NCBI GenBank assembly: GCA_044224215.1
Contig: JBGAKX010000005.1
Location: 7,350 to 71,349, forward strand
Direction: 5' to 3'
Source of the DNA: Blastocatellia bacterium
GTDB taxonomy: Bacteria; Acidobacteriota; Blastocatellia; UBA7656; JADIYM01
Length of the DNA stretch: 64,000 nt
Of this stretch, positions 1,648 to 60,435 are shown in pieces (the first letter of the stretch is position 1; each line of letters opens with the position of its first letter). The position numbers and the translations under genes are program-made. The notes under the pieces were generated by a model. It made no database searches, was not told where the DNA came from, and saw only the letters and a list, made by a program, of their open reading frames with translations.

Positions 1648-2787
1648 ATGCGCCGCATGAAAATCACGATCATCGGGGGCGGCCCCGCAGGTCTGTACTT
1701 TGCGATCCTCATGAAGAGGGCCGACCCGGTGCACGACATCACGGTGTACGAGCGCAATGCGCCCGGCGCGACGTTCGGCTGGGGCGTGGTCTTCTCGGAC
1801 AAGACCCTCTCGTATCTGAAGGACAACGACCTCGAGACGCACGACGAGATCACCCGGTCGTTCGAGACGTGGGACAACGTGGACATCGTCCATCTTGGCG
1901 AGAAGATGACGATCCGCGGCAACAAGTTTTCAGGCATCGCGCGGATCCGTCTGCTGAACATCCTCCAGGCGCGCTGCGCCGAGCTCGGCGTAAGGATGCT
2001 GTTCGAGACCGAGGCCGGGGATCTCGACGCTCTCGCCGCAGACTGCGACCTGCTCGTCGGAGCCGACGGCGTCAACAGCGGCGTGCGGGCCGCCTATTCC
2101 GCTGCGTTCGAACCCTCGCTGGACGTGCGCGCCAACAAGTACATCTGGTTCGGCACCGAGCGCCTCTTTCACGGCTTGACGCTGACGTTTCACGACAACG
2201 CCGACGGTGTGTACGCGGCGCACTCCTACAAGTTCAGCAAGCAGCTGAGCACGTTCATCGTCGAGTGCGATCCCGAGACCTGGCAGAACGCCAGCTTTGC
2301 GGACCGCTCCGACGACGACACTCGCGCGTACCTCGAGGACGTGTTTCGGGAGGACCTCGGCGGGCACCCCCTGCTCTCAAACAACTCCAAGTGGATCAAC
2401 TTCCTGCTCGTCAAGAACCGGCACTGGCACACGAGGAATATCGTGCTGCTTGGCGACGCGCTGCATACGGCCCACTTTTCGATCGGCTCGGGCACAAAGC
2501 TCGCGCTCGAGGACTCGATCGCGCTCGCCGATGCGTTCAAGCGTGAGTCCGACGTCGAGGCCGCGCTCCGGTTGTTCGAACGAAACCGCCGACCAGTCAT
2601 CGACGAATACCAGGATGCCGCGCTCGAGAGCATGGTCTGGTTCGAGAACGCTCGGGCGTACGTGCATCTCGAACCGATGCCGTTTGCGTACGGCTTGATG
2701 ACGCGCAGCAAGAAGATCGACTATGACAACCTGAAGCGCCGCGACCCCGAGTTCATCTCGGCGTACGACCGCGCGGTTGCCAGGTAG
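1648..2787 (+). CDS. FAD-dependent aromatic-ring monooxygenase (UbiH/salicylate-hydroxylase superfamily)
   Basis: N-terminal GxGxxG dinucleotide fold (KITIIGGGPAGLYFA) and a GDALH(T)AHFSIGSG motif typical of the FAD monooxygenase DG/GD fingerprint. Length is 379 aa. Confidence 0.8.
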   Translation: MRRMKITIIGGGPAGLYFAILMKRADPVHDITVYERNAPGATFGWGVVFSDKTLSYLKDNDLETHDEITRSFETWDNVDIVHLGEKMTIRGNKFSGIARIRLLNILQARCAELGVRMLFETEAGDLDALAADCDLLVGADGVNSGVRAAYSAAFEPSLDVRANKYIWFGTERLFHGLTLTFHDNADGVYAAHSYKFSKQLSTFIVECDPETWQNASFADRSDDDTRAYLEDVFREDLGGHPLLSNNSKWINFLLVKNRHWHTRNIVLLGDALHTAHFSIGSGTKLALEDSIALADAFKRESDVEAALRLFERNRRPVIDEYQDAALESMVWFENARAYVHLEPMPFAYGLMTRSKKIDYDNLKRRDPEFISAYDRAVAR

Positions 2788-2806
2788 GATCGCGCCGCGG
2801 CTCGAC

Positions 2807-4195
<1,389 letters not shown>

Positions 4196-4295
4196 TTAAC
4201 GGGTTCGGACGGAGAAGGTCAAGGAAGGCGAAGATGAGGACAGGCCGCAGATTGACGCGGATTGACGCAGATTCGGCATGTCAGCGAATTCACCA

Positions 4296-8309
<4,014 letters not shown>

Positions 8310-21992: not shown

Positions 21993-22436
21993 GCTGGTTG
22001 AAGGATGGCACGGCCCGCGACCCCTGGCCGCCGGTGCTTCGAGCGGCCGCAACCTGCAGAATCGTGCACGATTCTCGGCAGCTCCTCGAGTCGCGCACTC
22101 GTCCGCGGCCGGCTCTGGCCACGCAAAGAAGAATTGAAGGGCTTCTCAACTCGGAGTACGCTATGTCCGTCCCCAACCCTGGTTAGTGTGATTCCTTCCA
22201 AGTCACTATGGATTTGACGTCACGTCAGACGGTTGCCGGAACCTCGTTCTGCATGCCGAATTCATTCTTCAGCGACGTTGTCAGGCTGAACCGCCTCGGG
22301 ACCGTCAACGGTTGTTCGCCCGGCCGAAACCGATTGTGCGCGACGTCGCGTGCTGATGCTGTCGATTCTGGCTGTGCGGCCGGTTCATAAGTGCCTGTCC
22401 AGCTCGGTCGGGATCGCACAAGGAGCTCAATCAGAA

Positions 22437-43025: not shown

Positions 43026-43059
43026 AGATTGACGACCTCCGGGGAGGGTGAGGTGTTGC

Positions 43060-43487
43060 GGGAGAGTGGATCTGTAAGCCGAATTCTGTTCCCGCCTTTC
43101 GGCAGGTGGCGATCATTCATCTAGGCCGGCAATTGCTCGCCGGCTCGAGCGACCTACCCGGAGGTCGTGGCCTTCCGCCCCCGAGGGAGCCTGGGCACTT
43201 GGACGGGCCGTCCTGGTTGACGCCTCCCTATTTGGTCTTGCACCGCGAGGAGTTTGCCTAGCCGCCGGATGTCACCATCGGCGCTGGTGGGCTCTTACCG
43301 CCACCGTTTCACTCATCACCTGATCCCTCTTTCGAGGGCCATCGGCTGACCTGTTCTCTGTTGCACTTGTCGTCGGGTCACCCCGCCTGGCCGTTAACCA
43401 GCTCGCTGCCCTTCAGTGTTCGGACTTTCCTCCCGCGACCCGGGCCGAAGCCCGGAACGCCGGCGATCGCCTGATCCGCTCTCCCAC
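43060..43487 (-). ncRNA. rnpB: RNase P RNA, bacterial type A
   Basis: The minus-strand transcript contains the universally conserved P4 strands GGAGGAAAGUCCG and ...ACAGAAUUCGGCUUACAG. It also contains CAACAGAGAACAGGUCAGCCGAUGGCCC, GGUAAGAGCCCACCAG, CAAGACCAAAUAGGGAGG and a P15-P17-like CCUAGAUGAAUGA region. These are collinear with E. coli M1 RNA by direct comparison from memory. P1 pairs GGGAGAGCGGAUC with GAUCCACUCUCCC. Confidence 0.85.
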
Positions 43488-43569: not shown

Positions 43570-43881
43570 TCAGTCGAACGCGTCGATGAACGTCTTCATG
43601 AGGTATGGGTTGTTGGACTTGATCCGGCCGGTCAGGAAGTCCGACATCCCGGGATAGTGATGCCCGTTGTACATCTTCACAAAGAGCTCTTCTGTCGTCT
43701 TGACAAAGCAGTCGGCATTCTCGACTGCCCGTCCCGGTTCGACGCTGCACGACTCTGGCCCGATCGTCACCGTCCACCGCAGCTCGTCGAGCGAGAAGTA
43801 GAACGTCATCTCCTTTTCGGCCCGCCCGGGGCGAAACCGGGACTCGAGGTGTCTGAAAATGTCGTCCGCCGTCTCCGCCAT
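43570..43881 (-). CDS. SCP2 sterol-carrier-like domain protein (103 aa)
   Basis: The ATG at 43881 is preceded by GGAGGAG at about 8 nt. The SCP2-like pattern includes ...TFYFSLDELRWTV...KTTEELFVKMYNG...LTGRIK. The ORF-track start at 43902 was rejected. Confidence 0.55.
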   Translation of the reverse strand: MAETADDIFRHLESRFRPGRAEKEMTFYFSLDELRWTVTIGPESCSVEPGRAVENADCFVKTTEELFVKMYNGHHYPGMSDFLTGRIKSNNPYLMKTFIDAFD

Positions 43882-44149
43882 CGGTGTTCTCCTCCGGGTC
43901 AATCACTGCAGTCAAGTGTCGGAAAGCGGGCCCTCTTATAGCCGCTGCGGAGTCCCGAAACAAGCCCCGCCGATGGCGGGTCAATTGGCTTGACTAATCG
44001 AGGCCCGGTGATATTCTAGGGCCCGACTTCGGCTGCCCCTGCCTTGCCGCATTCCCGCGGCCCCGCGGCAGCCGAGCCGTCTGGTTCGTTCGAATATTCA
44101 CAGCACCCGTTTTCCCATTGTTCTTCGGTCTCTTACGGAGAGGATCGCC

Positions 44150-46018
44150 ATGAACACCAGTCGTCTTCGTGTTCGCGTCGGCACGATGTCCGGACGCGTC
44201 GCGCTTGCCGCAATCGCGGTTTCCCTGCTCACCTTCAATTTTGTGCCTGCCAGCGCGCAAGGCGGGGGCTCGCGGCCCGTCGCGCACGATCGCAGCGCCC
44301 GCATCATCGAGGGGAAGGAACGCTCGATAAAGCTCAAGGGCAAGGCGTCCGAGGGCGGCAACAAGGCGCTCGTGTACACGATCTCGTCGTTCCCGCAGCA
44401 CGGAACGCTCACCGAGATGGATACGCAGAAGGGCAAGGTCACCTACACGCCCGACAGCGGCTTTTCGGGTGAGGACGCGTTTGCGTTCACCGTGAACGAC
44501 GGAACGGCCGAAAGCGATCCAGGCAATGTCCGCCTGATGGTCTACAAGCGTGGCGAAGCGCCGACCGGTCCGTCGCTGACGGCCGACGAGGTCCGAACGA
44601 TCGTGCAGGTCGCGGCGACTTCGATCAACGATTCGACAGCGGTCGTCGCCGTCATCGACCGCGCGGGACGCGTGCTTGCTGTCTACAAGCGCTCGGGCGC
44701 CAACAAGAACGACGTCGAGCGCGCGCTTGCGCTCGCACGGACGGGAGCGTTCTTCAGTAACAACGCGGCGCCGCTGTCGTCGCGTACAGTCCGCACGCTT
44801 GGCGGTGTTCACTTCCCGCCGGGCATTCGCGATGCCGGGCCGTCGGATCTTTATTCCATCGAGACGACGAACCGCGGATGTCCGTTCAACGTAACCTACA
44901 ACCCTGGCAAGGACTATCCTGTCTACACAAACCTTGATGGCACGGGTCCCGGCCTTGGTATCGGGACTGGAAAGCCGGACTTCTATGATGACGCCGGCAA
45001 GGTCGTCGATCCTGGCGGTTTCCCCATCTACAAGAACAATCAGGTTGCGGGCGGCATCGGTGTGACCGTTGCGTTTCCGTATAACCTCGGCACGCAGGGT
45101 GTCACGCAGGCGACGACGGCGGCCGAGTACGCTTCGTTCCAGGCGTCTCTCGCGCTCGGCGGGCCCGCTCTTCCACTACCTCCCCCGAACCGCGTCTACC
45201 TTGGCGGCATCGAGCTTCCGTTCTCACCGTTCCTGGACCAGATCGATCGCGGAATCCCAACACCTACTCCAACGGGTGCTGGTCCTGGCGTTGGATCGTT
45301 CGACCCGAACCGGTTCATCTTTGGCCCCGTTGCGGGCGGATTCGCACCCGACGGCTGGCTTGTAGGCCCGCTCTCGGGACGCCGGTTGACAGCTGCACAG
45401 GTCAACAACATCGTGATGAACTGCTTCAACGAGGCAAAGATCACTCGCGCAGCGATTCGTCTTCCGCTTGGTTCACCAGCGTCGATGGTTTTCGCCGTCG
45501 GAGATATTGACGGAACGCTTCTTGGTGTGTTCCGGATGCCTGATTCGACGATCTTCTCCATTGATGTTGCCATTGCAAAATCTCGAAACGTCGTCTGGTT
45601 CAGCACAGACGGGTACGTTGACCTACCTGGCATCCCTCCGGGAACTGCGGTGACAAACAACACGCTCTATGCCGGCGGTCAGCCGTTCTTCCCGATCGGC
45701 ATCAACAACAGCCAGCCAGGGCCGTTCTTTGACACGTTCCTGCGTGATGCTGCGAACCCTTGTACTCAGGGCTCTCAGCGCCGCAATCCCAACCAGAGTG
45801 GCATCGTGTGGTTCCCCGGTTCGGCGCCGCTGTTTTCTGGAAACACGATCGTCGGCGGACTGGGCGTGTCTGGTGACGGCGTCACGCAGGACGACGTGGT
45901 CACGTCCGCAGGTACGACAGGGTACGAAGCGCCTCTCGCGATTCGGGCGGACCAGGTGATCATCCGCGGCGTCCGGATGCCGTACATGAAGTTTAACCGG
46001 AATCCCCACGTTCCGTAG
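44150..46018 (+). CDS. Secreted protein: signal peptide, bacterial Ig/cadherin-like domain, two GlcG/HbpS-like (DUF336, heme-binding/degrading family) domains with large insertions
   Basis: Signal peptide (RVALAAIAVSLLTFNFVPASAQG). Ig-like segment (VYTISSFPQHGTLTEMD...YTPDSGFSGEDAFAFTVNDG). DUF336 hallmarks: TADEVRTIVQVAAT...AVVAVIDRAGRVLAVY, the GGFPI/GGQPFFPI motif, and the terminal GGLGVSGDGVTQDDVV signature. Confidence 0.6.
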   Translation: MNTSRLRVRVGTMSGRVALAAIAVSLLTFNFVPASAQGGGSRPVAHDRSARIIEGKERSIKLKGKASEGGNKALVYTISSFPQHGTLTEMDTQKGKVTYTPDSGFSGEDAFAFTVNDGTAESDPGNVRLMVYKRGEAPTGPSLTADEVRTIVQVAATSINDSTAVVAVIDRAGRVLAVYKRSGANKNDVERALALARTGAFFSNNAAPLSSRTVRTLGGVHFPPGIRDAGPSDLYSIETTNRGCPFNVTYNPGKDYPVYTNLDGTGPGLGIGTGKPDFYDDAGKVVDPGGFPIYKNNQVAGGIGVTVAFPYNLGTQGVTQATTAAEYASFQASLALGGPALPLPPPNRVYLGGIELPFSPFLDQIDRGIPTPTPTGAGPGVGSFDPNRFIFGPVAGGFAPDGWLVGPLSGRRLTAAQVNNIVMNCFNEAKITRAAIRLPLGSPASMVFAVGDIDGTLLGVFRMPDSTIFSIDVAIAKSRNVVWFSTDGYVDLPGIPPGTAVTNNTLYAGGQPFFPIGINNSQPGPFFDTFLRDAANPCTQGSQRRNPNQSGIVWFPGSAPLFSGNTIVGGLGVSGDGVTQDDVVTSAGTTGYEAPLAIRADQVIIRGVRMPYMKFNRNPHVP

Positions 46019-46028
46019 GCCAACTGCC

Positions 46029-48503
46029 ATGCGCCACGCTCATTCGCGGCCAGTTCTCAGCACCCGCCTGCTCGTCGTCATAGGATTGGTGCTCGTTGGC
46101 GGTGGATTCGCGGTCGTCGGTCTCTCCCAGGGCCGAGGTCCCGCAGCCGCTGCGACCGGGCCGCAGAAGGGCCCCGGCACCGGGTTCCTTCACAAAGATC
46201 ATTCGGGAATGGTGGCAATTCCGGGCCAGGCGGGGAAGACCCGCGAGCTGAAATGCGAGACGTGCCACGCGGTCTCCGTGGAGGCTCCGGATACAAACCG
46301 CTTCCCGGGTCCGGATCTCGAGAAGTACCCCGAGACGGCGAAGCTGGCCGCCACCGGCACCAAGCTGAACGGTCTTGGATTTCCCAAGTCGCACTCTGCG
46401 TGCGTCGAGTGTCACAAGGAGATCGCTCCCGGTCCTGGCGGCAAGTACTGCGGCCTTTGTCATGACACGCTGCAGAAGCTGCGCGTATTCCCGAAGGCGA
46501 ACGTCCAGCTGTCGCAGTTCGCCGACCGCTACTCGCACAAGGCCCACAAGGACTACTACGACAACAATCCCGACACCTTCAAGACCGCCGCGGTTTCAAG
46601 GCCCGCTGCGTCGCACGGCATTTTCGGGTCCGCGACCACGTTCGGTACGGCGGACATCCTGCGTGTCTCGTACGTCGCGCCGCCGGCTGAAAAGGGGCTT
46701 CGGTGCTCGACGTGCCACATCCCGGCGACGGGCGGCGTGAAGATGCAGCTGCCGCTGCATGCGAACTGCTTTGAATGCCACGCGAACGAAAAGATTGTCT
46801 CCAAGAAGGCCGACACCTATGCGATGAACTGCGTCGGCTGCCACGCCAACATGGCCTTGAACGATCCGACGGTCGACGAGAAGCTCAAGCCGGTCAAGGA
46901 CGCACTGAACGCGATCGCTCCGGTCATCGATCCGTTCCGTGTCGTCATCACGCCGTCCGGCGCGGGACACGCGCAGTTCAACCACGTCGGCGGCGCCGCG
47001 AAGTACCACGAGGTCCTCAAACCGGATGCCGGCAAGAGCGCCGGGAAGACCATCGAAGGCAAGATGGCCTGCCTGTTCTGCCACACATCGGTGGAGAAGG
47101 CCGCAACGCGCGCCCAGGTCATGGCGTTCGCGGTCAAGAAGACCGATCCTCAGCTCGTCCAGCCGCCGGCGTCCGCATGCGTGGTGTGCCACGTCCACGC
47201 GGTGCAGATGGTCGTTCCCGACAAGCCGTCCAAGACGGGCCGCGCGGGATGCACGGTCTGTCATACGGCGGCCGATGCCGCCAAGCCGGCTCCCGCAACA
47301 CACAGTCTGGGCGAGGCAGCTCCTGCGGCGACGCCGGCAAAGCCCGAGGCGACGCCTCCCGCGGCAAAGCCCGAACCGGCCAAGCCCACAACCGCGCCGG
47401 CGGCGAAACCCGAGCCTGCAAAGCCGGCGGCTCCGAAGCCCGAGCCGACAAAACCTGCGACCGCGCCGGCCGCGAAGCCCGTGGAAACCCCGAAGGTTGA
47501 GACGCCCAAACCGGCCGCGACGCCTGCGCCGGCAAAGCCCGAGACGCCAAAGGTCGAGCCACCCAAGCCCGCACCGACAGAAGCTCCCAAGACGGCCCCG
47601 GCGCCCGAACCCAAGCCTGCAGAACCCGCGGCGCCCAAGCCTCAGGCTGCACCTGCAAGCGGCGGCACGGTCGACTACTCAAAGGGCTACCCGCCCACAG
47701 CGCCCGGCTCGTCGCACCTGAGCCTACCGAACCCGATGCTGCTTGGGGATCCCAAGACCAGCGACCAGTGGGGTCTTGACGGAACGTGGGGGATTTCGAA
47801 GCTCACACACCAGGATCACTCCGAGAAGTACAAGGTTTCGTGCGCCACGTGCCATCACACGAACGGTGCAGGTAACGCGGCGATCGGCGAGCAGGTGCAG
47901 CGTTGCGTGAGCTGCCACAAGGCCGAGGGCGACGAGAAGAACCCGTCCAGCAAGGACGGCGACGAACTCTGGGTGAAGAACGCATTCCACCTGGGTGAAA
48001 CCGGTTGCATCGAGTGTCACAAGCGCGAGTCGGCCAAGAACCCGAATTCGAAGGCTGCGACGACGTGCGCAGGATGCCACCAGCCGAAAGGCAGCGCTGA
48101 CGCGGACCGCGTGCTGAAGGGCCTGTTCCGCGACGCTACGACGGCCGTCGCGTTCAAGGTTCCCGGCTTTGCAGACACGTGGCCTCGCTGGCAGACGCGG
48201 CCTGCCGGATTCGGACTGCTCGGTGGCCAAAGCCTCGCAGGGTCGTTCGGCGGCGCGTCTGTTCGGGCGCTCGTTTGCGACGTTCCGGCGCGACTCTGGT
48301 ATGCACAGTTCGCCGGGTCCGGGTCGCATCGCTCGGCGCGTGTCGTTTCGCACGCGCGGTGGCAACGGCATGAACCCTCGCATGCCGCGCGTTCTCGATC
48401 GCCGCAGGTTCAACTCGCGCCCTCGTGGCGTGGCGAACTGCCCAGACTCGCACTGGCGATCGCGCTCGTGGACCGGAACGCCGGGCACGGCTACAGGATC
48501 TGA
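46029..48503 (+). CDS. Multiheme cytochrome c, 13 CxxCH motifs, with an internal Pro/Ala/Lys-rich linker and a C-terminal tetraheme module
   Basis: Signal peptide/TM helix (LLVVIGLVLVGGGFAVVGL). Thirteen CxxCH motifs were counted (CETCH, CVECH, CGLCH, CSTCH, CFECH, CVGCH, CLFCH, CVVCH, CTVCH, CATCH, CVSCH, CIECH, CAGCH). The start lies 11 nt after the upstream gene stop. The last ~135 codons are Arg-rich and atypical (see findings). Confidence 0.8.
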   Translation: MRHAHSRPVLSTRLLVVIGLVLVGGGFAVVGLSQGRGPAAAATGPQKGPGTGFLHKDHSGMVAIPGQAGKTRELKCETCHAVSVEAPDTNRFPGPDLEKYPETAKLAATGTKLNGLGFPKSHSACVECHKEIAPGPGGKYCGLCHDTLQKLRVFPKANVQLSQFADRYSHKAHKDYYDNNPDTFKTAAVSRPAASHGIFGSATTFGTADILRVSYVAPPAEKGLRCSTCHIPATGGVKMQLPLHANCFECHANEKIVSKKADTYAMNCVGCHANMALNDPTVDEKLKPVKDALNAIAPVIDPFRVVITPSGAGHAQFNHVGGAAKYHEVLKPDAGKSAGKTIEGKMACLFCHTSVEKAATRAQVMAFAVKKTDPQLVQPPASACVVCHVHAVQMVVPDKPSKTGRAGCTVCHTAADAAKPAPATHSLGEAAPAATPAKPEATPPAAKPEPAKPTTAPAAKPEPAKPAAPKPEPTKPATAPAAKPVETPKVETPKPAATPAPAKPETPKVEPPKPAPTEAPKTAPAPEPKPAEPAAPKPQAAPASGGTVDYSKGYPPTAPGSSHLSLPNPMLLGDPKTSDQWGLDGTWGISKLTHQDHSEKYKVSCATCHHTNGAGNAAIGEQVQRCVSCHKAEGDEKNPSSKDGDELWVKNAFHLGETGCIECHKRESAKNPNSKAATTCAGCHQPKGSADADRVLKGLFRDATTAVAFKVPGFADTWPRWQTRPAGFGLLGGQSLAGSFGGASVRALVCDVPARLWYAQFAGSGSHRSARVVSHARWQRHEPSHAARSRSPQVQLAPSWRGELPRLALAIALVDRNAGHGYRI
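47272..47660 (+). repeat. Low-complexity tandem AKPEP/TPKVE-type repeats (Pro/Ala/Lys/Glu-rich linker) inside the 13-heme cytochrome gene
   Basis: Visible degenerate nucleotide repeats (aagcccgagcc..., gcgccggc...) encoding AAKPEPAKPTTAPAAKPEPAKPAAPKPEPTKP... Confidence 0.6.
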
Positions 48504-48662
48504 TGGGCGGCGGCCTGCACCTGGCGTTCGCCTTGTTTTCATCGAGTCGCTTCGAATTGGATTGAATCTCACGCAGGCAACTGGTTCAGGACGTGCCGGC
48601 GTTCCGCAAGTCGCGAGGTTGGCGACGAGTCCGGAGAGCCGTGTCCTCGACACACTCAGACC

Positions 48663-49523
48663 ATGAAAAGAACGATCCCTCTTCTTGCCCTCGTCGCGGC
48701 ACTCTCGGTCACCGCGTGGCTTTCCGACCGGACGAGCGCCCAGGATACGGCGTACAACTATGGGTCGTTCGATCACAAGGAGCACGACGCCGCACTCGAC
48801 AAATCCGCGCAGGAGCGCATCGCGTGCGACGTCTGCCATCGGCGCGACGACGCGAGCTCGCAGCTCTACTTTCCGGGCCACAATGCGTGCATTCAGTGTC
48901 ACGCGACGCAGTTCACGTCCCAGTCGCTCCAGATCTGCGCCGTCTGCCACAAGGACGTCGCGACGCAGGGGCGCGCGCTGAAGGACTTTCCCGCGCAGCG
49001 CAAGGACTACGGCGTCAGGTTCGACGGCGCGGGCAACAAGAGCCAGCACGTCGTCCACATGAAGGAAGCGCTCCCGGACGGCACCAAGATGTCGTGCTCC
49101 TTCTGCCATGCGGCGCAGGGCTCGAATATGGCATTCCCCTCGCACCCCGAGTGCTACGCGTGCCACACGCCAGGTGCGAATTCGAAGGCGGCGTCGCAGG
49201 AATTGAGCACGTGCTCGGTCTGCCACCCCGGCGCTACCGAGCCCAACTCCGAGATGCGACGTCTTGTCAGCACCCGACGCAATGACGCGCTGCCCTACCG
49301 GTTCCGGCATCTCGACCATAACCGGTCCGGCCGGATCGGCAACGATTGCGCCAAGTGCCACAACGACGCGGCCGGAATTCACGTGGCGTCCACCGCAACG
49401 CGCGAGCATCGGGTCAAACCGGGGTTCAACTGCTACGAGTGCCACCGAGGCGGGGGTCTGTCGCGGATCACTGAGACATCGTGCGGAAGCTGTCACGGCG
49501 TCGTCGTGTTCCCGCCGCTGTAG
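48663..49523 (+). CDS. Multiheme cytochrome c, 9 CxxCH motifs, periplasmic
   Basis: Signal peptide MKRTIPLLALVAALSVTAWLS. Nine CxxCH motifs (CDVCH, CIQCH, CAVCH, CSFCH, CYACH, CSVCH, CAKCH, CYECH, CGSCH). Confidence 0.8.
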   Translation: MKRTIPLLALVAALSVTAWLSDRTSAQDTAYNYGSFDHKEHDAALDKSAQERIACDVCHRRDDASSQLYFPGHNACIQCHATQFTSQSLQICAVCHKDVATQGRALKDFPAQRKDYGVRFDGAGNKSQHVVHMKEALPDGTKMSCSFCHAAQGSNMAFPSHPECYACHTPGANSKAASQELSTCSVCHPGATEPNSEMRRLVSTRRNDALPYRFRHLDHNRSGRIGNDCAKCHNDAAGIHVASTATREHRVKPGFNCYECHRGGGLSRITETSCGSCHGVVVFPPL

Positions 49524-49754: not shown

Positions 49755-50291
49755 ATGAGATATGCCAAGGCCGTTCTCTGCATCTGCGCGCTGGCAGTAT
49801 TTGGCGCGCTGTCATTCCACGTTGCGACCTCGTCCGCTGCCTCCGTTGATCCGACCCAGGCTGCGGTTGACTACTCGAAGGGCTACCCTGTGGAAGCTCC
49901 GGGTGCGTCGCACATGAGCCTTCCGAACCCCATGCTGCTCGGCGACCCCAAGACGAGCGACCAGTGGGGCCTCGATGACACGTGGGGAATCGCGAAATTC
50001 ACGCACCAGGACCACACCGAGAAATACAAGGTGTCGTGCCATACGTGCCACCATACAAACGGCAAGGACAATGCCGCCCTGACCGAGAACGTCGACCGTT
50101 GCGTGAAGTGCCACATGGCCGAGGGCAACGAGAAGAACCCGACGAACGCGGCCGGCGACGAACTCGACATCAAGAACGCATTTCACATCGGTGAGACGGG
50201 CTGTATCGAGTGCCACAAGCGCGAATCAGAGAAGAATCCGAACTCGAAGGCCGCCGCGACATGCGCCGGCTGCCACGAGAAGAAGGGCTAA
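49755..50291 (+). CDS. Tetraheme cytochrome c (cytochrome c3/c7-like), paralogous to the C-terminal module of the 13-heme protein
   Basis: Start ATG at 49755 (MRYAKAVLCICALAVFGALSFHVATSSAAS signal peptide). Four CxxCH motifs. About 80 % identical over ~140 aa to residues encoded at 47671-48097. Confidence 0.8.
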   Translation: MRYAKAVLCICALAVFGALSFHVATSSAASVDPTQAAVDYSKGYPVEAPGASHMSLPNPMLLGDPKTSDQWGLDDTWGIAKFTHQDHTEKYKVSCHTCHHTNGKDNAALTENVDRCVKCHMAEGNEKNPTNAAGDELDIKNAFHIGETGCIECHKRESEKNPNSKAAATCAGCHEKKG

Positions 50292-50298
50292 CGCCATC

Positions 50299-50328: not shown

Positions 50329-50373
50329 CTCATCCCAGGGCGCCCCCGCGGCAACTGTTTGAATCGAAGCACC

Positions 50374-51927: not shown

Positions 51928-51937
51928 GGGAGACCGT

Positions 51938-53519: not shown

Positions 53520-53550
53520 GGCGCGGTGTTCAACCCGTGAACGCCGCGCC
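53520..53550 (+). terminator. 13-bp stem (one G·U) / 5-nt loop hairpin after ccsA
   Basis: GGCGCGGTGTTCA-acccg-TGAACGCCGCGCC, seen directly. It overlaps the ORF-track start of the next gene, which argues for the downstream start at 53585. Confidence 0.5.
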
Positions 53551-53584
53551 GGGACTTCACCATCGTTTCCACGCCCACCTGATC

Positions 53585-54475
53585 ATGAGCGACACGACCA
53601 ACACGAACGCAAACATCGAGCTGATGAAGGCCAAGCTCGAAGCCCACAAGAAGGACAAGCTGCTGCATCTGCTGAGCGGGCTCTTCGTTGGCCTGCTGGT
53701 CGGATTCTTCGGAGCCAACTGGATGAACGCGCGGCCGGCGGCGATCGGACCCGCCGCCGGACAGGCAGCCGTGGGCGGTGCAGACCTTCCGGCCGATCAT
53801 CCCGCCGTCGAGGGCGGAGGCGCGGGAGCAGGAGCGGGCGCGGCGATGCCTGAGGTGCAGGCCAAGCTGAAGGCGGCGGACGACAACCCCCAGGACTTCG
53901 ACGCGCAGATGGAAGCCGCGGCGATGTTTTTCCGGATCAACAACTTTGCCAAGTCGGTCGAGTATCTTGAACGTGCGAGCAAGCTGAAGCCGAATGATCC
54001 GGACACGCTCGCAAACCTCGCGAGGGTCCAGTTGCGCAGCGGGGACATGGAGCAGGCAATTGCAAACGCCCGCAAAGCGTACGACCTGAAGCCCGACGAC
54101 TTTGACAACACCGTGCTGCTGGCCAATCTGCTGTTCGACACCGAGAAGTTCGTGGACGCGCAGCCGCTCTACGAAAAGGCGCTCGTCATGAAGCCCGACG
54201 ACGTCGACGTCCGCACGGATCTCGGCACGAGCTACTTCAAGGCGGGCAATCCCGACAAGGCCATCGCCACCTACCGCGAATCGCTCAAGCGCGACCCCAA
54301 GCACCAGAATACACTCGTCAACATCGCGCATGTCGCCATTGCAAAAGGTGACTCTGCGGTCGCCGAGGACGCGCTGACCAAGCTCGCGGCGGTCAATCCG
54401 CAGAACGCCGAACTCGCCAGCTTGCGGACGCAGCTCGACGAGCTCAAGAAGACTGGAAAGATTCCGACACACTAG
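53585..54475 (+). CDS. Membrane-anchored TPR-repeat protein
   Basis: TM helix (LLHLLSGLFVGLLVGFFGANW), Gly/Ala-rich spacer, then several TPR units (AKSVEYLERASKLKPNDPDTLANLARV...). Confidence 0.6.
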   Translation: MSDTTNTNANIELMKAKLEAHKKDKLLHLLSGLFVGLLVGFFGANWMNARPAAIGPAAGQAAVGGADLPADHPAVEGGGAGAGAGAAMPEVQAKLKAADDNPQDFDAQMEAAAMFFRINNFAKSVEYLERASKLKPNDPDTLANLARVQLRSGDMEQAIANARKAYDLKPDDFDNTVLLANLLFDTEKFVDAQPLYEKALVMKPDDVDVRTDLGTSYFKAGNPDKAIATYRESLKRDPKHQNTLVNIAHVAIAKGDSAVAEDALTKLAAVNPQNAELASLRTQLDELKKTGKIPTH

Positions 54476-54708: not shown

Positions 54709-57174
54709 ATGCCACAAGAGATCCAGAAGCGTCGGGATGTGCTCGCGGCCATCAAGAGTGTGGCCGCCATTGCAGACATCACCGCTGAGCATGCCGGGCA
54801 TTTCGAGCACGAGATCGACCTCGAAGTCATCGTCTACGGCCGCAACTACAACGGCAAGAAGGTCGGTCCGTACGTGCGCCTCCTCGTCTACCAGAACGGC
54901 GAGGACGTCATGCGCGAGGGCGAGTGGGGCGGGAACACGTTCTACGTCGTGGTCGAGGGCAAGGCCGACGTGCTGATCGACAGCGCGAACGGCATCGTCA
55001 AGGTCGCCGAGATATCGCAGGGCGACATCCTCGGCGAGATGTCGATCCTTGCGGGTGTGCCGCGATCCGCGACCGTTCGTGCACCGCAGGGCGGCGCCGT
55101 GAAGGTGCTCGAGGTTCAGCGTCCGGCGCTCCGGTTGCTGCGCAAGCTGCCGCATTTTGGTGAGTCGCTCGACCGGTCGTATCGCCATCACGGCAGAAAC
55201 CAGATTCTCCAGGTACTCGGGTCCGTGGAGCACCTGTCGACGGACGCGATCAAGGCGCTTGAGGGCATCTCGCAGTTCCGCGTGTACGGCAAGGGGCACG
55301 TCCTGTTCCGTGCGGGCGAGCAGATTCGTCGTGTCTACCTTCTCAAGACCGGCTGGCTGCGAATGTCGCAACAGGCTAAGACCTCGCTGCTCGCGGCGGT
55401 GCCCGGGTATGGCAACGTGAAATCGCTGTCGTGGGACACCCCGTCGCCGGACAGCTACTTTGGTCCGTCACACGCGTTCGGCCTGGAGGGCGTCCAGCAG
55501 GATGCAACGTGGCGCCACTCGGGCGTGCTGCTCGGACGCACCGAGATGCTCGAGGTGTCGGTGTCGGAGCTCCGAAAGAACCCGCAGCTCGTTGCGCTCC
55601 TTGGGCACGCGCTGCAGACCCTCGAGATCAAGGACGCGCAGGCCGACAAGGGTCCGCCGGCCCCGGTCGCCGAGGCGCAACGCGAACTGATCGCGAACGG
55701 GCTCGTCGACGGGACGAACCTGTTGCTGATGGACATGGAGCTGTGCGTCCGGTGCGGCAACTGCTCGCTTGCCTGCAATCACCAGCACGGCAACTCGAGA
55801 CTGCTGCGACGGGGCATTTCGATCACGCGCCCCGAGACGCTCAAGAAGAACTCGCATACGCAGCACCTCATGAATCCGTCGGTCTGCATGCACTGCATGG
55901 ACCCCGAGTGCATGACGGGCTGTCCGACGGGAGCGATCGGTCGCTTCCCCGGCGGCTATGTCGACATCGATCCGAAGACGTGCATCGGGTGCGGCGACTG
56001 CGCGACGCAGTGCCCGTACGACGCCATCTCGCTGATCGCGCGACGGCCAAAGCCTGGTGAGAAATCGAATGCGCTTGTCGAGATGTTCAGCCTGGCGCCT
56101 GCGCCGATACCCGAGTCGGTCGAAACGACCGAGGACCTCGTTGCGGTCAAGTGCAACCTTTGCAGCAATACGCCGCTGAACCCGCCGGGCGCGAAGTCGC
56201 GCAAGTACAGCTGCGAAGAGAACTGTCCAACTGGTGCGCTTCTGCGTGTGAGCCCGCGTGTCTACTTTGACGAGATCGCCAACATCGAGGGCGTCATCTT
56301 CAAGGACGATACGCACATCGTTTCCAAACACACGTCGCACCGCGATCCCAAGAAGCGACTCATTCACCTGCTCGGCATCGTGCTCACGCTGGCGCTTGCC
56401 GCGGTGAGCGTGGCGGCGCTTTACAGAATCGGCCGCGACAATCCGCTCCTTGGATCGTGGTTCAACTTCTACTGGTTCACCGGGATTGTTGGTCTTCTCG
56501 CGATCACGTGGGTGATGTTGTACCCGATCCGCCGACAGATCTTCCGCAAACGCGTCATTCCGTTGCGCTACTGGATGCTGTCGCATGCCTACATGGGCGT
56601 GATCGCGGGCGTGCTCCTTCTCATGCACGCCGGGACGCGCGGTGGCGGCCTGCTGACCACGTCGCTGATGATCACGTTCGACCTGGTCATCCTGACGGGG
56701 TTGTGGGGCATCGCCACGTACTACGTCGTGCCGAGAGTGCTCACAAAGATCGAGGAGCAACCGCTCCTCGTCGACGACCTCATCCTCAGACGGCAGGAAC
56801 TGACTGAGGAGATCGCGGACACGGTCGCCCGCGCGTCGCAGCCGACGCGTGATGCGATCGAGAAGGGCGTCATTCCGCACTTCCTGACGTTTGGCTATCT
56901 GCTGGGACAGTATTTCTCGGCAAAGCCGCTCGCGGTGAATACTGCAGAAGCCCGCAAGCATTTTGAGCAGACGGCGATGACGCTTCCTCCCAACGAGCGC
57001 GATTCGTTCTTTGGCGCTGTCGAGCGCGCGGCGACGCTGCGTCGGGTCGACGCGCTCATCCTGCTGCACCGGTCGCTCAAGGCGTGGCTCGCACCGCACG
57101 TCCTGACGACGTCGCTCATGCTCGCCCTGATGATCGTGCACATCATTCAGGTCATCTATTTCGCCGTGAAATGA
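54709..57174 (+). CDS. Cyclic-nucleotide-binding (2x cNMP) domain protein fused to a four-cluster [4Fe-4S] ferredoxin module and a C-terminal His-containing polytopic membrane domain
   Basis: cNMP-binding signature GEMSIL...RSATVRA and a second degenerate CAP-like domain. Cysteine motifs: CVRCGNCSLAC, CMHCMDPECMTGCP, CIGCGDCATQCP, and CNLCSN...C-x3-CP (the NrfC/PsrB-like tetra-cluster pattern). At least 5 C-terminal TM helices. Confidence 0.7.
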   Translation: MPQEIQKRRDVLAAIKSVAAIADITAEHAGHFEHEIDLEVIVYGRNYNGKKVGPYVRLLVYQNGEDVMREGEWGGNTFYVVVEGKADVLIDSANGIVKVAEISQGDILGEMSILAGVPRSATVRAPQGGAVKVLEVQRPALRLLRKLPHFGESLDRSYRHHGRNQILQVLGSVEHLSTDAIKALEGISQFRVYGKGHVLFRAGEQIRRVYLLKTGWLRMSQQAKTSLLAAVPGYGNVKSLSWDTPSPDSYFGPSHAFGLEGVQQDATWRHSGVLLGRTEMLEVSVSELRKNPQLVALLGHALQTLEIKDAQADKGPPAPVAEAQRELIANGLVDGTNLLLMDMELCVRCGNCSLACNHQHGNSRLLRRGISITRPETLKKNSHTQHLMNPSVCMHCMDPECMTGCPTGAIGRFPGGYVDIDPKTCIGCGDCATQCPYDAISLIARRPKPGEKSNALVEMFSLAPAPIPESVETTEDLVAVKCNLCSNTPLNPPGAKSRKYSCEENCPTGALLRVSPRVYFDEIANIEGVIFKDDTHIVSKHTSHRDPKKRLIHLLGIVLTLALAAVSVAALYRIGRDNPLLGSWFNFYWFTGIVGLLAITWVMLYPIRRQIFRKRVIPLRYWMLSHAYMGVIAGVLLLMHAGTRGGGLLTTSLMITFDLVILTGLWGIATYYVVPRVLTKIEEQPLLVDDLILRRQELTEEIADTVARASQPTRDAIEKGVIPHFLTFGYLLGQYFSAKPLAVNTAEARKHFEQTAMTLPPNERDSFFGAVERAATLRRVDALILLHRSLKAWLAPHVLTTSLMLALMIVHIIQVIYFAVK

Positions 57175-57176
57175 GG

Positions 57177-57199
57177 GCAAGGGCCCGCCCGGCCCTTGC
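57177..57199 (+). terminator. 9-bp perfect hairpin (GCAAGGGCC-cgccc-GGCCCTTGC) followed by TTCCTC, 3 nt after the stop
   Basis: Seen directly. Confidence 0.5.
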
Positions 57200-57231
57200 T
57201 TCCTCGAGGCGCTCGAACCGCAACCTACGCC

Positions 57232-58701
57232 ATGGCAACGAGCAAATTCACTATCATTCGCAAGGACCTCCAGACGGACCCGTCTGTTGTCGACAGTGAC
57301 GGCCTCACGATCGGGCGCCTTGTCAGCAACGACCTGCCGCTCAACCACCCCGAGGTTTCGCGCACGCACGCGGGTATCAAGGAGGTCGGTGGCGACTACT
57401 GGATATTCAACCTCTCGAATGCCAACGGGACCATCCTCAACGGTGCGCCGGTAGACAGCGCACCGCTGGCGGCTGGCGACGTCATTCAGCTCGGGCCATT
57501 CACGTTGCTTGTTTCGTTCACCGATCGCGTGCTGACGCTCACGGTCGAGGTGAGCGTCAACCCGATGCGCGTCGAGAATGCCGGCGCAGCGGGTGCGACG
57601 GTCGATCAGGCCGGCAAGACGATGATGCTCAACCCGGCCATGTTGGCTGCCCAGCAGCAGAAGGCAGCGCCGGGCGGCACTCAGCGACTGGCAATGACAG
57701 GCAAGCTCACCGGCATGCTCGCCAAGCCGGAAGAGCTCGCGCTGAAGGTCTTCTGGGAGAAGCGCCAGCGCGACGAAGGCAAGATGGCCGAGCGCACGGA
57801 CCTGAAGCCGAACCTTCAAAAGGGCCGTGTCGGCAAGATCCGCTTCAACTGGAGATCGTCGTCCGACCTGCGCAGGCCGTGGCCCGTCGGGCTGTTTCTG
57901 TGGGGTACGATCCTTGTCGCGGTGGGCGCGATCGCAGCGACGTTTCTCTACAAGCAGGCGTACACGAAGGGGCCGCTCGCCGACGTGCATACGCGCACCG
58001 CGCTCGCTCAGGCAGAGCCGGCTCTCGCGATCGCAAAGACCGCAAACGCCAACTCGTGCACGACGTGCCACTCGCTCACAAAGTCGATGGCCGGCCAGTG
58101 TGCCGAGTGCCACACGACGCCCGGGTTCAAGTCTACCGTTTCGCACGAACACGAGATGGCCGGCGTCACGTGCTCCGAGTGCCATGGACAGGACCATCGC
58201 GGCAACGCATTCAGGCTCGCGGCGGCCGAGACGTCTTGCGACACGTGTCACAGGCAGGGCTACGTCTTCAAGAGCGTTGCCCAGGGGAAGGACATCGTCC
58301 TGCAGACGCCGCACGGCGGCGCGAACATCGGCTACCCCGTGACCAACGGCCAGTGGACGTGGGCCGGCTGGCCTGAAGAGAAATGGAAGAAGCGCGGATT
58401 GCCGAAGACCGCGGCGGCCTTTGACATCAAGGGCCAGTTCCACGTCATCCACGTCGACAACGGAAAGCCGCTGGAGCAGGTTCAGTGCTCGGACTGCCAC
58501 ACCAAGGGCTTCGAGCCTGCAAACATCACGAAGGGCGTCCGCGAGTCGTGCGCGTCGTGCCACGGCGACACTGTGGCCCAGGCGGGCGCGTCGCCGTCGA
58601 GGGGCGCGCAGTGCACGTCCTGCCACCAGCAGCATACCGAGGGCAAGGACCCGTACGCGCTTGTGCGCGCGCGCGAGGTCAACGCGGCTCGAACAAAATG
58701 A
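57232..58701 (+). CDS. FHA-domain protein fused via one TM helix to a periplasmic heptaheme cytochrome c
   Basis: N-terminal FHA fold (TIGRLVSNDLPLNHPEVSRTHAGI...GDYWIFNLSNANGTILNG, i.e. the GR...S.H...N.NGT pattern). TM helix PVGLFLWGTILVAVGAIAATFLY. Seven CxxCH motifs (CTTCH, CAECH, CSECH, CDTCH, CSDCH, CASCH, CTSCH). Confidence 0.75.
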   Translation: MATSKFTIIRKDLQTDPSVVDSDGLTIGRLVSNDLPLNHPEVSRTHAGIKEVGGDYWIFNLSNANGTILNGAPVDSAPLAAGDVIQLGPFTLLVSFTDRVLTLTVEVSVNPMRVENAGAAGATVDQAGKTMMLNPAMLAAQQQKAAPGGTQRLAMTGKLTGMLAKPEELALKVFWEKRQRDEGKMAERTDLKPNLQKGRVGKIRFNWRSSSDLRRPWPVGLFLWGTILVAVGAIAATFLYKQAYTKGPLADVHTRTALAQAEPALAIAKTANANSCTTCHSLTKSMAGQCAECHTTPGFKSTVSHEHEMAGVTCSECHGQDHRGNAFRLAAAETSCDTCHRQGYVFKSVAQGKDIVLQTPHGGANIGYPVTNGQWTWAGWPEEKWKKRGLPKTAAAFDIKGQFHVIHVDNGKPLEQVQCSDCHTKGFEPANITKGVRESCASCHGDTVAQAGASPSRGAQCTSCHQQHTEGKDPYALVRAREVNAARTK

Positions 58702-58758: not shown

Positions 58759-60435
58759 ATGAAGAAGTCGCAACTCATCATTACCATCCTGATGCTCGTC
58801 ATTCTGGTCGCGGCTGCATTTGGCACGCGTTACCTGAATGTGAATCTCGGCGCCGTGCCCTGGTACGGCTGGACGGCACTCGCGATCGTGCTGATCGTCA
58901 TCGGAGTGATCGGCCTGATACTCGAGACGTCACGCGACCGGCGGGACCTGAAGGCTGCCACGATCGAGGCGGAACGCGAAGCCGCCGAACGGCTCGAGGC
59001 ATCCAAGCACCCTGACCTTGCGGTAAACGTCGCCGCATTGGACCCCGGTGGACCCGCGTATCCGCACCCTGTCATCAACTCGGCCACGTGCATCGGCTGT
59101 CATGCGTGCGTGGACGCTTGCCCGCATGACGTGCTCGCAATCGTGAACGGCATCTCCACTCCGATCGCGCTCGATCAGTGCATGGAGGACACCGGGTGCC
59201 AGGTTGAATGCCCGACCAGCCCCAAGTCCTGCATCGTGGTCAACACAAAGAAGAAGATTCCGGAGCGGAAGGTTCCAAAGCGCGACAACCGATTCATGAC
59301 CAATGTTCCCGGCATCTACCTGATCGGCGACGTATCGGGAGTTCCACTCATCAAGAACGCGATCAACGAGGGCGGCGCGGTCATCGAGCACATCGCCGAG
59401 GACCTTCAGAAGAAGGGCGGCAACGGCCAGGCGGAATACGATGTCGCGATCGTCGGCGTCGGACCCGGCGGTCTTTCGGCCGCGGCGCTCGCAAAGCAGA
59501 AGGGTCTGCGCTACGTAGCGCTCGAACAGGACAAGGTCGTCGCCACGATTCAGGCCTACCCGGCCGGCAAGTACGTGTTCTTCAAGCCCGACACGGTCGA
59601 GACGGACGGCGGCATCGAGCTACCCGGCGCCGGTCTTCCAAAGGAGCAGATGATCGGCTCGTGGCTTGACACGATCAAGAACAACTCGCTCAAGATCAAC
59701 GAGTACGAGACGTGCAAGAGCGTCAAGAACGAGAACGGCCTCTTCGTGGTCCGCACCGATTCGGAGAAGACCAAGCAGAGCGCCGAGTACAGGTCACAGA
59801 CGGTCATCATCGCCGTGGGTGGCCGCGGCACGCCGATGCGCCTCAAGGTGCCAGGCGAAGAGATCAAGCTGCAGGTGACGCCGAGCGCTCCGGTTATGTC
59901 GTCCTTCTGCGTCAAGTGCGGCCAGCCGCGCGAGGGCGCGGCGACCGTCTGTCCGAAGTGCAACGCTGCGTATCCGTCTCGCATTCCGCCGCCGTTCGAG
60001 GACGAGAAGGTGAAGTATCGCCTCAGCGATCCGAATCTTTTCTCGGGCAAGCACTGCATCGTCGTTGGCGCCGGCAACTCGGCGATCGAGTGCGCGGTGG
60101 ATCTCGCGTCGTATCGCTCGGAAGACGGCACGCAGATCATCGGATGGCGCGACAACGTCGTCACGCTCGTCATCCGGAGCGACTTCAAGGGCGACCTGAA
60201 GCTCGGCAACAAGATGCTGTGCTATGAGTGCATGGACGAGGGGAAGATCACGACCCACTTCCGAAAGGCATTCAAGGAGATCACGCCGACCGAGGTCGTG
60301 CTCATGAGCGCGCGCGAGCGCGACCCGGCCACGGCAAAGGAGACCGACCGAATCCGCAACGACTACATCTTTGCGCTGATCGGCGGCGACAAGCCGACCA
60401 AGTTCCTCGAGAGCATGGGAATCCAGATCGGCTAG
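58759..60435 (+). CDS. Membrane-anchored 2x[4Fe-4S] ferredoxin domain fused to an FAD/NAD(P)-binding (thioredoxin-reductase-like) oxidoreductase with an inserted zinc ribbon
   Basis: Two N-terminal TM helices. Ferredoxin motifs [12 protein letters not shown] and C-x5-C-x3-CP. Two Rossmann GxGxxG motifs ([25 protein letters not shown]). Zinc ribbon CVKCG...CPKCN. Confidence 0.7.

Follow-up and report, generated by a model that had tools for sequence, protein, structure and literature searches.

A secreted tandem DUF336 protein from Acidobacteriota as a likely non-cytochrome partner of multiheme cytochrome chains

The DUF336 superfamily, also known as GlcG/HbpS, has to my knowledge only three bacterial members that were studied biochemically. 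This study concerns a gene, termed DUF336x2 here, that lies at 44150..46018 on the plus strand of a 64,000-nucleotide (nt) stretch of a Blastocatellia bacterium genome (Acidobacteriota; assembly GCA_044224215.1, contig JBGAKX010000005.1, positions 7,350 to 71,349 of the forward strand; hereafter the window). It encodes two DUF336 repeats in one chain, and judging from the genes that accompany it, its family is likely a non-cytochrome component of multiheme electron-transfer chains. Its best match in both sequence and fold (E 5.5e-15, target template modelling (TM) score ~0.8) is EfgA of Methylorubrum extorquens (6BWS/6C0Z), a formaldehyde sensor whose ligand-contacting residues K57, S114, and D121 are largely conserved across DUF336 homologs (PMC8153426). 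EfgA is a cytoplasmic, single-domain protein of ~140 amino acids (aa) from a methylotroph, which assembles into a homotetramer, lacks inserts, and exerts its effect on translation, whereas DUF336x2 is predicted to be secreted, is a probable fused pseudo-dimer with inserts of ~70-85 aa, has cytochrome genes as neighbours, and stems from an Acidobacteriota metagenome-assembled genome (MAG). PduOC (5CX7) shares the fold and binds heme b in octamers, in which the heme is held by His18 from two monomers across the homodimer interface and the pocket is lined by Thr21, Arg22, and Val25, with Arg22 forming a salt bridge to a propionate (PMC4923194). HbpS of Streptomyces reticuli (3FPV/4BMW) has a Thr in place of His18, and its heme binding is four orders of magnitude weaker (PMC4923194). 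HbpS resembles DUF336x2 in being a secreted DUF336 protein, with a link to heme, iron, and redox state, but it is a single-domain octamer that works together with the SenS-SenR pair. Finally, among solved structures repeat 1 is closest (E 3e-08) to DESPIG_02683 of Desulfovibrio piger (4NKP), a structural-genomics entry named 'putative extracellular heme-binding protein' that differs in having one 148-aa domain; Desulfovibrio is a genus noted for periplasmic multiheme cytochromes, and I know of no functional study of 4NKP, for which the literature was not searched.

On the cytochrome side, porin-cytochrome or MtrCAB-type conduits and the EET1/EET2 systems of Acidobacteriota, whose cores in peat are of the porin-NHL-CytC and Mtr-like types (bioRxiv 10.64898/2026.05.27.727921), also consist of clustered secreted multiheme cytochromes, and the Tenderiales uet cluster (bioRxiv 10.1101/2022.05.06.490989) has dedicated ccsAB genes and a TPR (nrfG) gene like the window. 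The cytochromes of the window differ from these systems in that they are not orthologs of Mtr/Omc proteins and give Pfam hits at the level of domains only. DUF336 is mentioned neither in the text or supplements of the Acidobacteriota preprint nor in the descriptions of the MtrCAB and uet clusters. A literature search for DUF336 together with multiheme cytochromes returned only false positives for the prefix of DUF3365 or unrelated mentions, and one for LVIVD together with multiheme cytochromes returned nothing relevant. The conserved association of this fused, insert-bearing, secreted DUF336 architecture with cytochromes is apparently undescribed.

The association with cytochromes was assessed by the homology of neighbouring genes in 80 species-level genome loci (individual loci are cited by number, e.g. 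L001). Homologous neighbours recur in 76 of these species-distinct loci, which span several phyla and share ~50% protein identity. Among the loci that extend for 8 kb or more to each side of the gene, at least one neighbour family was present in 54/54 and three or more in 42/54. A separate census of CXXCH motifs found one or more open reading frames (ORFs) with three or more motifs in ~69 of 79 loci. The recurrent neighbour families were the following.

~1,176-aa 8-heme LVIVD-repeat protein: 57/80 loci
~697-aa secreted protein ending in Phe, possibly a porin: 54/80 loci
c554-like tetraheme cytochrome: 42/80 loci
Membrane-anchored decaheme cytochrome: 41/80 loci
Bis-heme b membrane protein of ~293 aa (e.g. 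L007 1816..2697, minus strand): 39/80 loci
Fer2/Fer4 protein with a cyclic nucleotide monophosphate (cNMP) binding domain: 35/80 loci
NuoF-like protein: 23/80 loci

Close orthologs of DUF336x2 (70-88% identity, with the Ig-like Big_9 domain) keep the gene order of DUF336x2, cytochromes, ResB, CcsA, TPR protein, and cNMP/iron-sulfur protein. For distant homologs, multiheme cytochromes adjoin the gene in all four annotated contexts sampled, and three of these contexts show it directly abutting the cytochrome gene upstream of it or overlapping with that gene (0-4 nt). In L008, for example, the ~697-aa protein (2377..4470) is followed by an 8-heme LVIVD beta-propeller protein (4470..8000), and the latter lies directly upstream of the tandem DUF336 gene. 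Pfam gave no hit for the ~697-aa protein, the last residues of which are '...VRVLF', and its signal peptide and C-terminal Phe suggest that it may be an outer-membrane beta-barrel or porin. A reading of the DNA letters made beforehand (the sequence-only reading) had proposed DUF336x2 as a partner of the cytochrome chain, and synteny across phyla strongly supports this proposal. It is highly improbable that DUF336x2 is an incidental neighbour such as a generic adhesin: the Ig-like domain does resemble adhesin repeats and the partnership with cytochromes is deduced from gene context, but recurrence of homologous neighbours in nearly all loci at this level of divergence and the overlaps of 0-4 nt with cytochrome genes both argue against chance.

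The same comparison bears on the proposal that DUF336x2 is an HbpS-type extracellular sensor of redox state, heme, or iron, which would act through a membrane kinase to control the cytochrome operon. HbpS provides the precedent, and signalling domains do occur in or near the clusters: the window has cNMP and FHA domains, L007 has a histidine kinase, L008 and the JGI locus have PP2C and Ser/Thr kinases, and L009 has a CHASE2 cyclase. These signalling genes change from locus to locus, however, and no SenS/SenR-like kinase and regulator pair was found among the genes scanned at 41.4-63.9 kb of the window or as a conserved neighbour in ortholog contexts. In addition, HbpS (3FPV, 4BMW) matched only marginally, with E 0.08-0.12 for the full profile and 0.0024-0.014 for the repeat-1 profile (E 0.002-0.1 overall, over repeat 1 only), an alignment too weak to place the heme and iron residues described for HbpS with confidence. 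The abutment of the gene to a structural cytochrome gene in three of the four distant contexts suits a subunit better than a regulator. A sensor role is consequently very unlikely, and the redox-sensing function put forward by the sequence-only reading derives from the family name.

The domain make-up of DUF336x2 was established from profiles and a predicted structure. The 622-aa product is 100% identical to HQR37634.1, annotated by NCBI as 'heme-binding protein [Blastocatellia bacterium]' from an Acidobacteriota MAG. The whole protein matches PF03928 (HbpS-like/DUF336) in two stretches with 60.9 bits (E 1.7e-16; cut-off 25), and the halves alone also exceed the cut-off, the repeat 1 half (aa 131-387) just so with 25.3 bits and the repeat 2 half (aa 388-622) with 46.8 bits. 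The N-terminal Ig-like region scores 48.7 bits for Big_9 and 32.5 bits for Cadherin_5, both above their cut-offs. An AlphaFold2 monomer model based on a 65-sequence alignment had a mean predicted local distance difference test (pLDDT) score of 87.9 and a predicted TM-score (pTM) of 0.78, with pLDDT below 50 at aa 1-12 and aa 27-39. In Foldseek searches, solved DUF336 structures (EfgA 6BWS, ORFY 2A2L, PduOC 5CX7, NahX 9JTH, and 4NKP) matched both repeats with target TM-scores of 0.70-0.85, and cadherin, Rib, and Ig domains matched the N-terminal part. The resulting features of the gene are listed below.

44150..46018, plus strand: whole DUF336x2 gene, 622 aa (ORF, Pfam, identical NCBI protein, model pLDDT 87.9)
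44150..44257, plus strand: Sec-type signal peptide, aa 1-36, predicted cut after ASA (sequence pattern)
44273..44545, plus strand: Ig-like Big_9/cadherin-like domain, aa 42-132 (Big_9 1.5e-12, Cadherin_5 8e-08; all beta-strand in the model; Foldseek)
44567..45154, plus strand: DUF336 repeat 1, aa 140-335, with insert at ~aa 204-289 (nt 44759-45016) and degenerate canonical pocket (PF03928 25.3 bits)
45155..45379, plus strand: ordered inter-repeat linker, aa 336-410, mainly coil with one helix (pLDDT ~85-97)
45380..45919, plus strand: DUF336 repeat 2, aa 411-590, with insert at ~aa 486-556 (nt 45605-45817) and canonical pocket K477/S574/D581 kept (PF03928 46.8 bits)
45920..46015, plus strand: conserved C-terminal extension, aa 591-622, with D601, R609, and K614 (conservation)

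The tandem DUF336 domains, the cadherin-type Ig-like domain, the N-terminal signal for secretion (as a prediction), and the long insertions in both domains, all of which the sequence-only reading had described, were thereby borne out, and the profile and structure-prediction checks of the DUF336 fold that it had suggested were passed without an unrelated adhesin family emerging. The insertions show in the profile alignments, where 163 residues of repeat 1 correspond to 111 profile positions and 154 residues of repeat 2 to 114; in the model the inserts are ordered, mostly without regular secondary structure. No family model for DUF336x2 was found in NCBIfam. The single match was a sub-threshold tandem-95 repeat (NF012211, 39.8 bits against a cut-off of 90) that covers one repeat within the Ig domain only (aa 72-139), and assignment as a tandem-95/cadherin-like adhesin was rejected. 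The signal peptide has a basic n-region, hydrophobic residues from aa 14 to aa 32, and a motif for cleavage ('ASA-QG') but no twin arginine, which makes DUF336x2 very probably extracytoplasmic by prediction. HbpS, by comparison, is Tat-exported, while the signal of DUF336x2 is of the Sec type, a further point against an HbpS-type sensor. Sec or lipoprotein signals predominate among the relatives, with a twin-arginine-like signal in 6/120 and a lipobox-like one in 12/120; this argues against cofactors that are assembled in the cytoplasm and would leave metals, heme b, or no cofactor.

The two repeats evidently arose by duplication. An hhalign comparison of aa 138-340 with aa 408-622 gave a probability of 99.4% (E 2.5e-21), and the inserts align as well, so that the DUF336 domain must already have carried its insert before duplication and fusion. 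C244 stands opposite C538 in this alignment, and these equivalent positions covary perfectly among 120 relatives: both are Cys in 111, they are Val and Gly in 9, and mixed pairs are absent. This covariation points to a probable inter-repeat disulfide Cys244-Cys538, which fits an extracytoplasmic location, and the fused repeats may stand in for the homodimer of other DUF336 proteins.

K477, S574, and D581 of repeat 2 align with the ligand-contacting K57, S114, and D121 of EfgA and are, along with D582, invariant in 120 close relatives and near-invariant in 110 diverse representatives of clusters formed at 50% identity. The core Lys, Ser, and Asp are lost from repeat 1, where the equivalents are L195, A/V/T306, and none. 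All DUF336 core motifs (D..G, R-M-x-D, S.D..A..K, FPGG, and GG.GVSG....D) are present and invariant in repeat 2, comprising D452, G455, R462, M463, D465, S470, D472, K477, F555-G557, G569-G575, and D581; as judged by these residues, the canonical DUF336 pocket is kept by repeat 2 only. Across the alignment of 65 sequences, each only ~50% identical to the query, 66 columns are invariant, among them G353 and P357 of the linker. Among the 110 diverse representatives, 75 positions are conserved at 85% or more, which include R171, R197, T198, R212, N241, E326, R433, R437, D452, R462, D465, S470, D472, K477, R479, S574, D576, D581, D582, D601, R609, and K614. As a separate observation, aa 562 (45833..45835) is Phe in the window protein, while Tyr occupies this position in 117/120 close relatives and 106/110 diverse representatives.

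The profile, the fold, and the core motifs place DUF336x2 in the DUF336/GlcG/HbpS superfamily, and the absence of the features that define the HbpS, PduOC, and EfgA functional subfamilies places it outside all three; the K/S/D triad is largely conserved across the superfamily and so does not define the EfgA subfamily. EfgA (full profile 5.5e-15), PduOC, ORFY, and 4NKP are all nearer than HbpS, and the repeat-1 profile matched 4NKP with 3e-08 and EfgA with 3e-06. This has consequences for the proposal that DUF336x2 handles heme, i.e. that it binds periplasmic heme b and buffers, delivers, or degrades it during maturation of the 26-33 adjacent hemes, or holds it as an extra redox centre. Both HbpS and PduOC provide precedents for heme and cobalamin binding in the superfamily (PMC4923194, PMC8153426). 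The genes for the cytochrome c maturation proteins ResB and CcsA are co-located in the window clade, and the counterparts of PduOC Thr21, Arg22, and Val25 are kept as T432 (112/120), R433 (120/120), and I436 (120/120), which is suggestive only, because the shape of the pocket persists in DUF336 members that do not bind heme. H221 is conserved at 83-89%, and the ordered inserts largely without regular secondary structure would also be in line with a cofactor, as ordered loops of this kind are common around cofactors. The counterpart of the iron ligand His18 of PduOC, however, is Ala429 in repeat 2 (105/120 close relatives and 100/110 diverse ones have Ala here) and I159 in repeat 1 (Ile, Val, or Leu, and also Thr or Ser among the diverse representatives). 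There is no invariant His or Cys across the aligned relatives, as H221 is replaced by Asn or Thr in 11-17% of members, and M463 belongs to the superfamily-wide RMD motif that is also found in EfgA, which is not a heme protein. The marginal match to HbpS and the residues at the His18 position mean that the known modes of heme ligation are not seen in DUF336x2. Furthermore, maturation genes are not adjacent to the gene outside the window clade, and fusions of the module to dockerin and matrixin (see below) are hard to reconcile with a role in maturation. Overall, the pocket appears to be retained in DUF336x2, but the heme-handling function that the sequence-only reading had suggested is not supported beyond the name of the family, and I consider it unlikely.

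The wider tandem family, without the Ig-like domain, is large: it accounted for 4,940 matches among 8,000 candidates, for 260 clusters at 50% identity (E ≤1e-30), and for at least 543 species-level genomes. The hosts are mostly Acidobacteriota (Terriglobia, Bryobacterales, and Thermoanaerobaculia), and Rokubacteria, Nitrospirae, Acidimicrobiia, and Dormibacterota occur as well; a cultured host was sought through the names of cluster members, but all members sampled were MAGs. Among the 120 relatives listed, the Ig-like domain was restricted to 14 close ones (69-88% identity), and stand-alone forms with only a signal peptide predominate. Dockerin, FG-GAP, matrixin, TIG, and Big_9 domains were found as partners across the relatives, and proteins of 800-1,200 aa join the tandem module to FG-GAP, dockerin, or matrixin domains (e.g. 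P0153, P0187, and P0199; locus L091). These longer proteins keep the same constellation of conserved residues, and in all those where the GGxGVSGDG motif allowed the module to be placed, it occupies the C-terminus. The N-termini of this branch start with 'LExLExR'-type motifs, which I take to be typical of Planctomycetota, so that the branch presumably is Planctomycetota-like.

Such architectures suggest a further alternative, in which the module anchors proteins to the envelope or binds a matrix: an Arg-rich site would grip an anionic surface polymer and tether attached or co-expressed proteins. The C-terminal position of the module in the longer relatives, the nature of the partner domains, the same constellation with or without cytochrome neighbours, and an extracytoplasmic location with a probable disulfide would all be compatible with anchoring. 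On the other hand, a module of ~480 aa with 75 near-invariant positions and a putative small-molecule pocket would be atypical of an anchor, polymer binding has no precedent in the DUF336 superfamily, and the stand-alone forms that predominate have nothing attached but a signal peptide. I therefore regard anchoring as quite improbable.

The reading I favour, to which I give about an even chance, is that DUF336x2 is an exported, pseudo-dimeric DUF336 module with a single pocket in repeat 2, which serves as an accessory subunit and presents a small anionic ligand to a cytochrome. The two repeats would pack as a pseudo-dimer and be clamped at the pseudo-twofold axis by the Cys244-Cys538 disulfide. 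D452, R462, D465, S470, D472, K477, S574, D581, and D582 would form the small-ligand pocket of repeat 2, and residues of the inserts and the linker (R171, R197, R212, E238, N241, R242, E326, R433, R437, D601, R609, and K614) would surround and enlarge this pocket with an Arg-rich, strongly conserved surface. As a stoichiometric non-cytochrome subunit at the periplasmic or outer end of the cytochrome chain, the protein would bind one small, probably anionic ligand, be it a substrate, a shuttle, or a cofactor acquired in the periplasm such as a tetrapyrrole, and present it to the neighbouring cytochrome; it would not act as an HbpS-type sensor.

Several points weigh against this reading. That the protein physically associates with cytochromes, what kind of ligand it would bind, and which way electrons would flow are deductions from sequence and gene context, and so are the single pocket and the disulfide. 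The synteny argument is that homologous neighbours recur across divergent species, and it does not use a background rate of cytochrome genes as a yardstick. Among 269 proteins and 80 loci, no fusion of the tandem module to a CXXCH or cytochrome domain was found, and in the single context recovered for the dockerin/FG-GAP/matrixin branch, a 6.9-kb contig, none of the called genes gave a cytochrome hit. The presence of the module with the same residues in dockerin-type fusions without cytochromes implies that its chemistry is intrinsically independent of cytochromes; its own activity would then be cytochrome-independent ligand binding or catalysis, which was recruited to cytochrome clusters in Acidobacteriota-type lineages. 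Finally, the window clade has no LVIVD cytochrome, no 697-aa protein, and no c554-like protein, so that the partner differs between lineages. From the gene content, the window clade is a case of swapped outer components, with the iron-sulfur/cNMP and bis-heme b module retained in a fused form.

In the window, all genes from 44150 to 60435 are on the plus strand with short gaps, which results in a co-directional array of ~16 kb with DUF336x2 as the first gene. Four of the ORFs downstream of it contain CXXCH motifs (13, 9, 4, and 7, respectively). The array and the parts of its first cytochrome are as follows.

46029..48503, plus strand: cytochrome with 13 CXXCH motifs, starting 10 nt past the DUF336x2 stop (gap 46019-46028; motif count, Pfam)
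46029-47303, plus strand: 9-heme core of the 13-heme cytochrome, followed by a Pro/Ala/Lys-rich linker at 47304-47669 (comparison with L090)
47670-48092, plus strand: duplicated tetraheme c3 domain of the 13-heme cytochrome, followed by an unmatched tail at 48093-48500 (comparison with the downstream tetraheme c3 cytochrome, cyt3)
48663..49523, plus strand: cytochrome with 9 CXXCH motifs and a signal peptide (292-296 aa ortholog in L001 and L004)
49755..50291, plus strand: tetraheme c3-type cytochrome (the ORF as listed probably starts at its Met34)
~50374-51927, plus strand: ResB, System II cytochrome c maturation (Pfam 2.9e-56)
51938-53503, plus strand: CcsA, System II cytochrome c maturation (Cytochrom_C_asm 3e-37)
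53537..54475, plus strand: CcmH/NrfG-like TPR protein with one transmembrane segment (TPR families, TPR_CcmH_CycH; start uncertain; conserved in L001 and L005)
54709..57174, plus strand: 821-aa cNMP-binding and 4Fe-4S protein fused to a four-His membrane domain of the bis-heme b type (Pfam)
57196..58701, plus strand: FHA domain, transmembrane helix (aa 228-253), and cytochrome with 7 CXXCH motifs (Pfam, transmembrane prediction, motif count)
58759..60435, plus strand: pyridine-nucleotide-disulphide oxidoreductase with two transmembrane segments and 4Fe-4S, putative NAD(P)H entry point (Pyr_redox_3 1.1e-29, Fer4)

The 13 CXXCH motifs of the downstream ORF agree with the sequence-only reading. 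This cytochrome is composite: residues 1-425 are 80% identical to a 473-aa cytochrome of L090, a locus with an 88%-identical DUF336x2 ortholog, and after a Pro/Ala/Lys/Glu-rich linker of ~120 aa, its C-terminal tetraheme domain shares 79% aa and 77% nt identity with the downstream tetraheme c3 cytochrome (49.86-50.29 kb). No homolog of the ~135-aa tail was found anywhere examined. As judged from these comparisons, the 13-heme ORF is a genome-specific fusion, in place of which L090 has the 473-aa cytochrome; the tail may stem from the loss of a stop codon, or from a problem of assembly or frame. For the tetraheme c3 cytochrome the shorter start was preferred because the ortholog in L001 has 175 aa. 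The order of ResB and CcsA is repeated in orthologs. No recognisable porin and no homolog of the putative 697-aa porin were found in the window operon. A further ORF of 716 aa with two CXXCH motifs lies at 22290..24437 (plus strand), far from the cytochrome cluster.

The last three genes of the array encode proteins that could pass electrons across the inner membrane. The N-terminal part of the 821-aa protein resembles the Fer2/Fer4/cNMP protein of L007 (E 3e-38), and its C-terminal membrane domain is homologous to the stand-alone family of ~293 aa, termed unk293 (E 5e-09), with His pairs of the bis-heme b pattern, H81/H95 and H272/H286, that are 14 residues apart, transmembrane, and all kept in the window; the membrane domain matches Pfam Ferric_reduct only weakly, with 16.7 bits where the cut-off is 28. 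In related loci the stand-alone membrane protein has NuoF-like and Fer2/Fer4/cNMP proteins and a membrane-anchored decaheme cytochrome as neighbours. In the window, the flavoprotein, the iron-sulfur/cNMP/bis-heme b protein, and the 7-heme cytochrome together look like an undescribed transmembrane module for electron export from NAD(P)H to cytochromes. Exporters of the ferric-reductase/NOX type are alike in combining an NAD(P)H-type flavoprotein or NuoF-like protein with an iron-sulfur protein and a membrane domain with two His pairs, but the module described here differs in its output to multiheme c-type cytochromes, its cNMP-binding domain, and its weak match to Ferric_reduct. PP2C and Ser/Thr kinase genes lie beside related clusters in L008 (328..1059) and in the JGI 3300047160 locus, and together with the FHA-cytochrome fusion this suggests phospho-threonine control of the conduit, in addition to the cyclic-nucleotide domain.

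A more specific, tentative extension, which I would call possible but improbable, is that DUF336x2 forms the substrate-facing terminal module of an undescribed, NAD(P)H-driven and cNMP/FHA-regulated electron-export system that binds a carbonyl or anionic extracellular acceptor. Electrons would pass from the cytoplasmic flavoprotein and iron-sulfur protein through the bis-heme b membrane domain to the multiheme cytochromes, and the Lys/Ser/Asp pocket would bind, for instance, an iron chelate or the quinone-like moieties found in organic matter and present this acceptor to the last heme.

Co-transcription of DUF336x2 and the adjacent cytochrome gene is likely. The following signal precedes the DUF336x2 gene.

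44137..44144, plus strand: Shine-Dalgarno-like GGAGAGGA upstream of the DUF336x2 start codon (read from the sequence)

Its GAGG core occurs at the same spacing in the orthologs of L090, L001, L004, and L006. No Shine-Dalgarno motif was found at the cytochrome start in the window, L090, or L001, in which the gap after the DUF336x2 stop is 10-12 nt, and this combination fits re-initiation. The spacing in the window had been given as 11 nt by the sequence-only reading and has to be corrected to 10 nt. Its proposal of translational coupling is plausible for the closest relatives but does not extend to the other orthologs, where the gap amounts to 37-99 nt. A scan for promoters and terminators gave counts not above those of shuffled controls; one site resembling a sigma-70 promoter (43990-44017) has a suitable position but did not reach significance, and no riboswitch was found in the 5' leader.

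Upstream of DUF336x2, a divergent ORF of ~104-110 aa (43570..43902, minus strand) scores 17.9 bits as SCP2-like, which is below the cut-off, and this small ORF is conserved directly upstream of DUF336x2 in all close orthologs (e.g. L001 9399..9713 and L090 2048..2359). Between this ORF and an alpha/beta hydrolase gene lies a full-length class A RNase P RNA (43059..43482, minus strand; RF00010 253.7 bits, E 3e-83), and the ORFs listed across this interval are spurious.

Multiheme clusters in Acidobacteriota and other phyla abundant in soil and peat are now proposed as machinery for extracellular respiration, and one very strongly conserved secreted family travels with such clusters in hundreds of species while database labels describe it only as "heme-binding protein" or "GlcG (DUF336)". 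If the tandem module turned out to be only a heme buffer or an anchor, the value of the finding would be modest and annotational. If the more specific export system were real, multiheme conduits would have a non-heme partner of a new class, in a system widespread in Acidobacteriota and neighbouring phyla. If DUF336x2 is a true subunit, it would offer a tractable handle, being soluble, ~50 kDa in size, and equipped with a mutable pocket, which could reveal the reactants of the conduit, and the DUF336 superfamily would gain a new architecture and a new cellular context.

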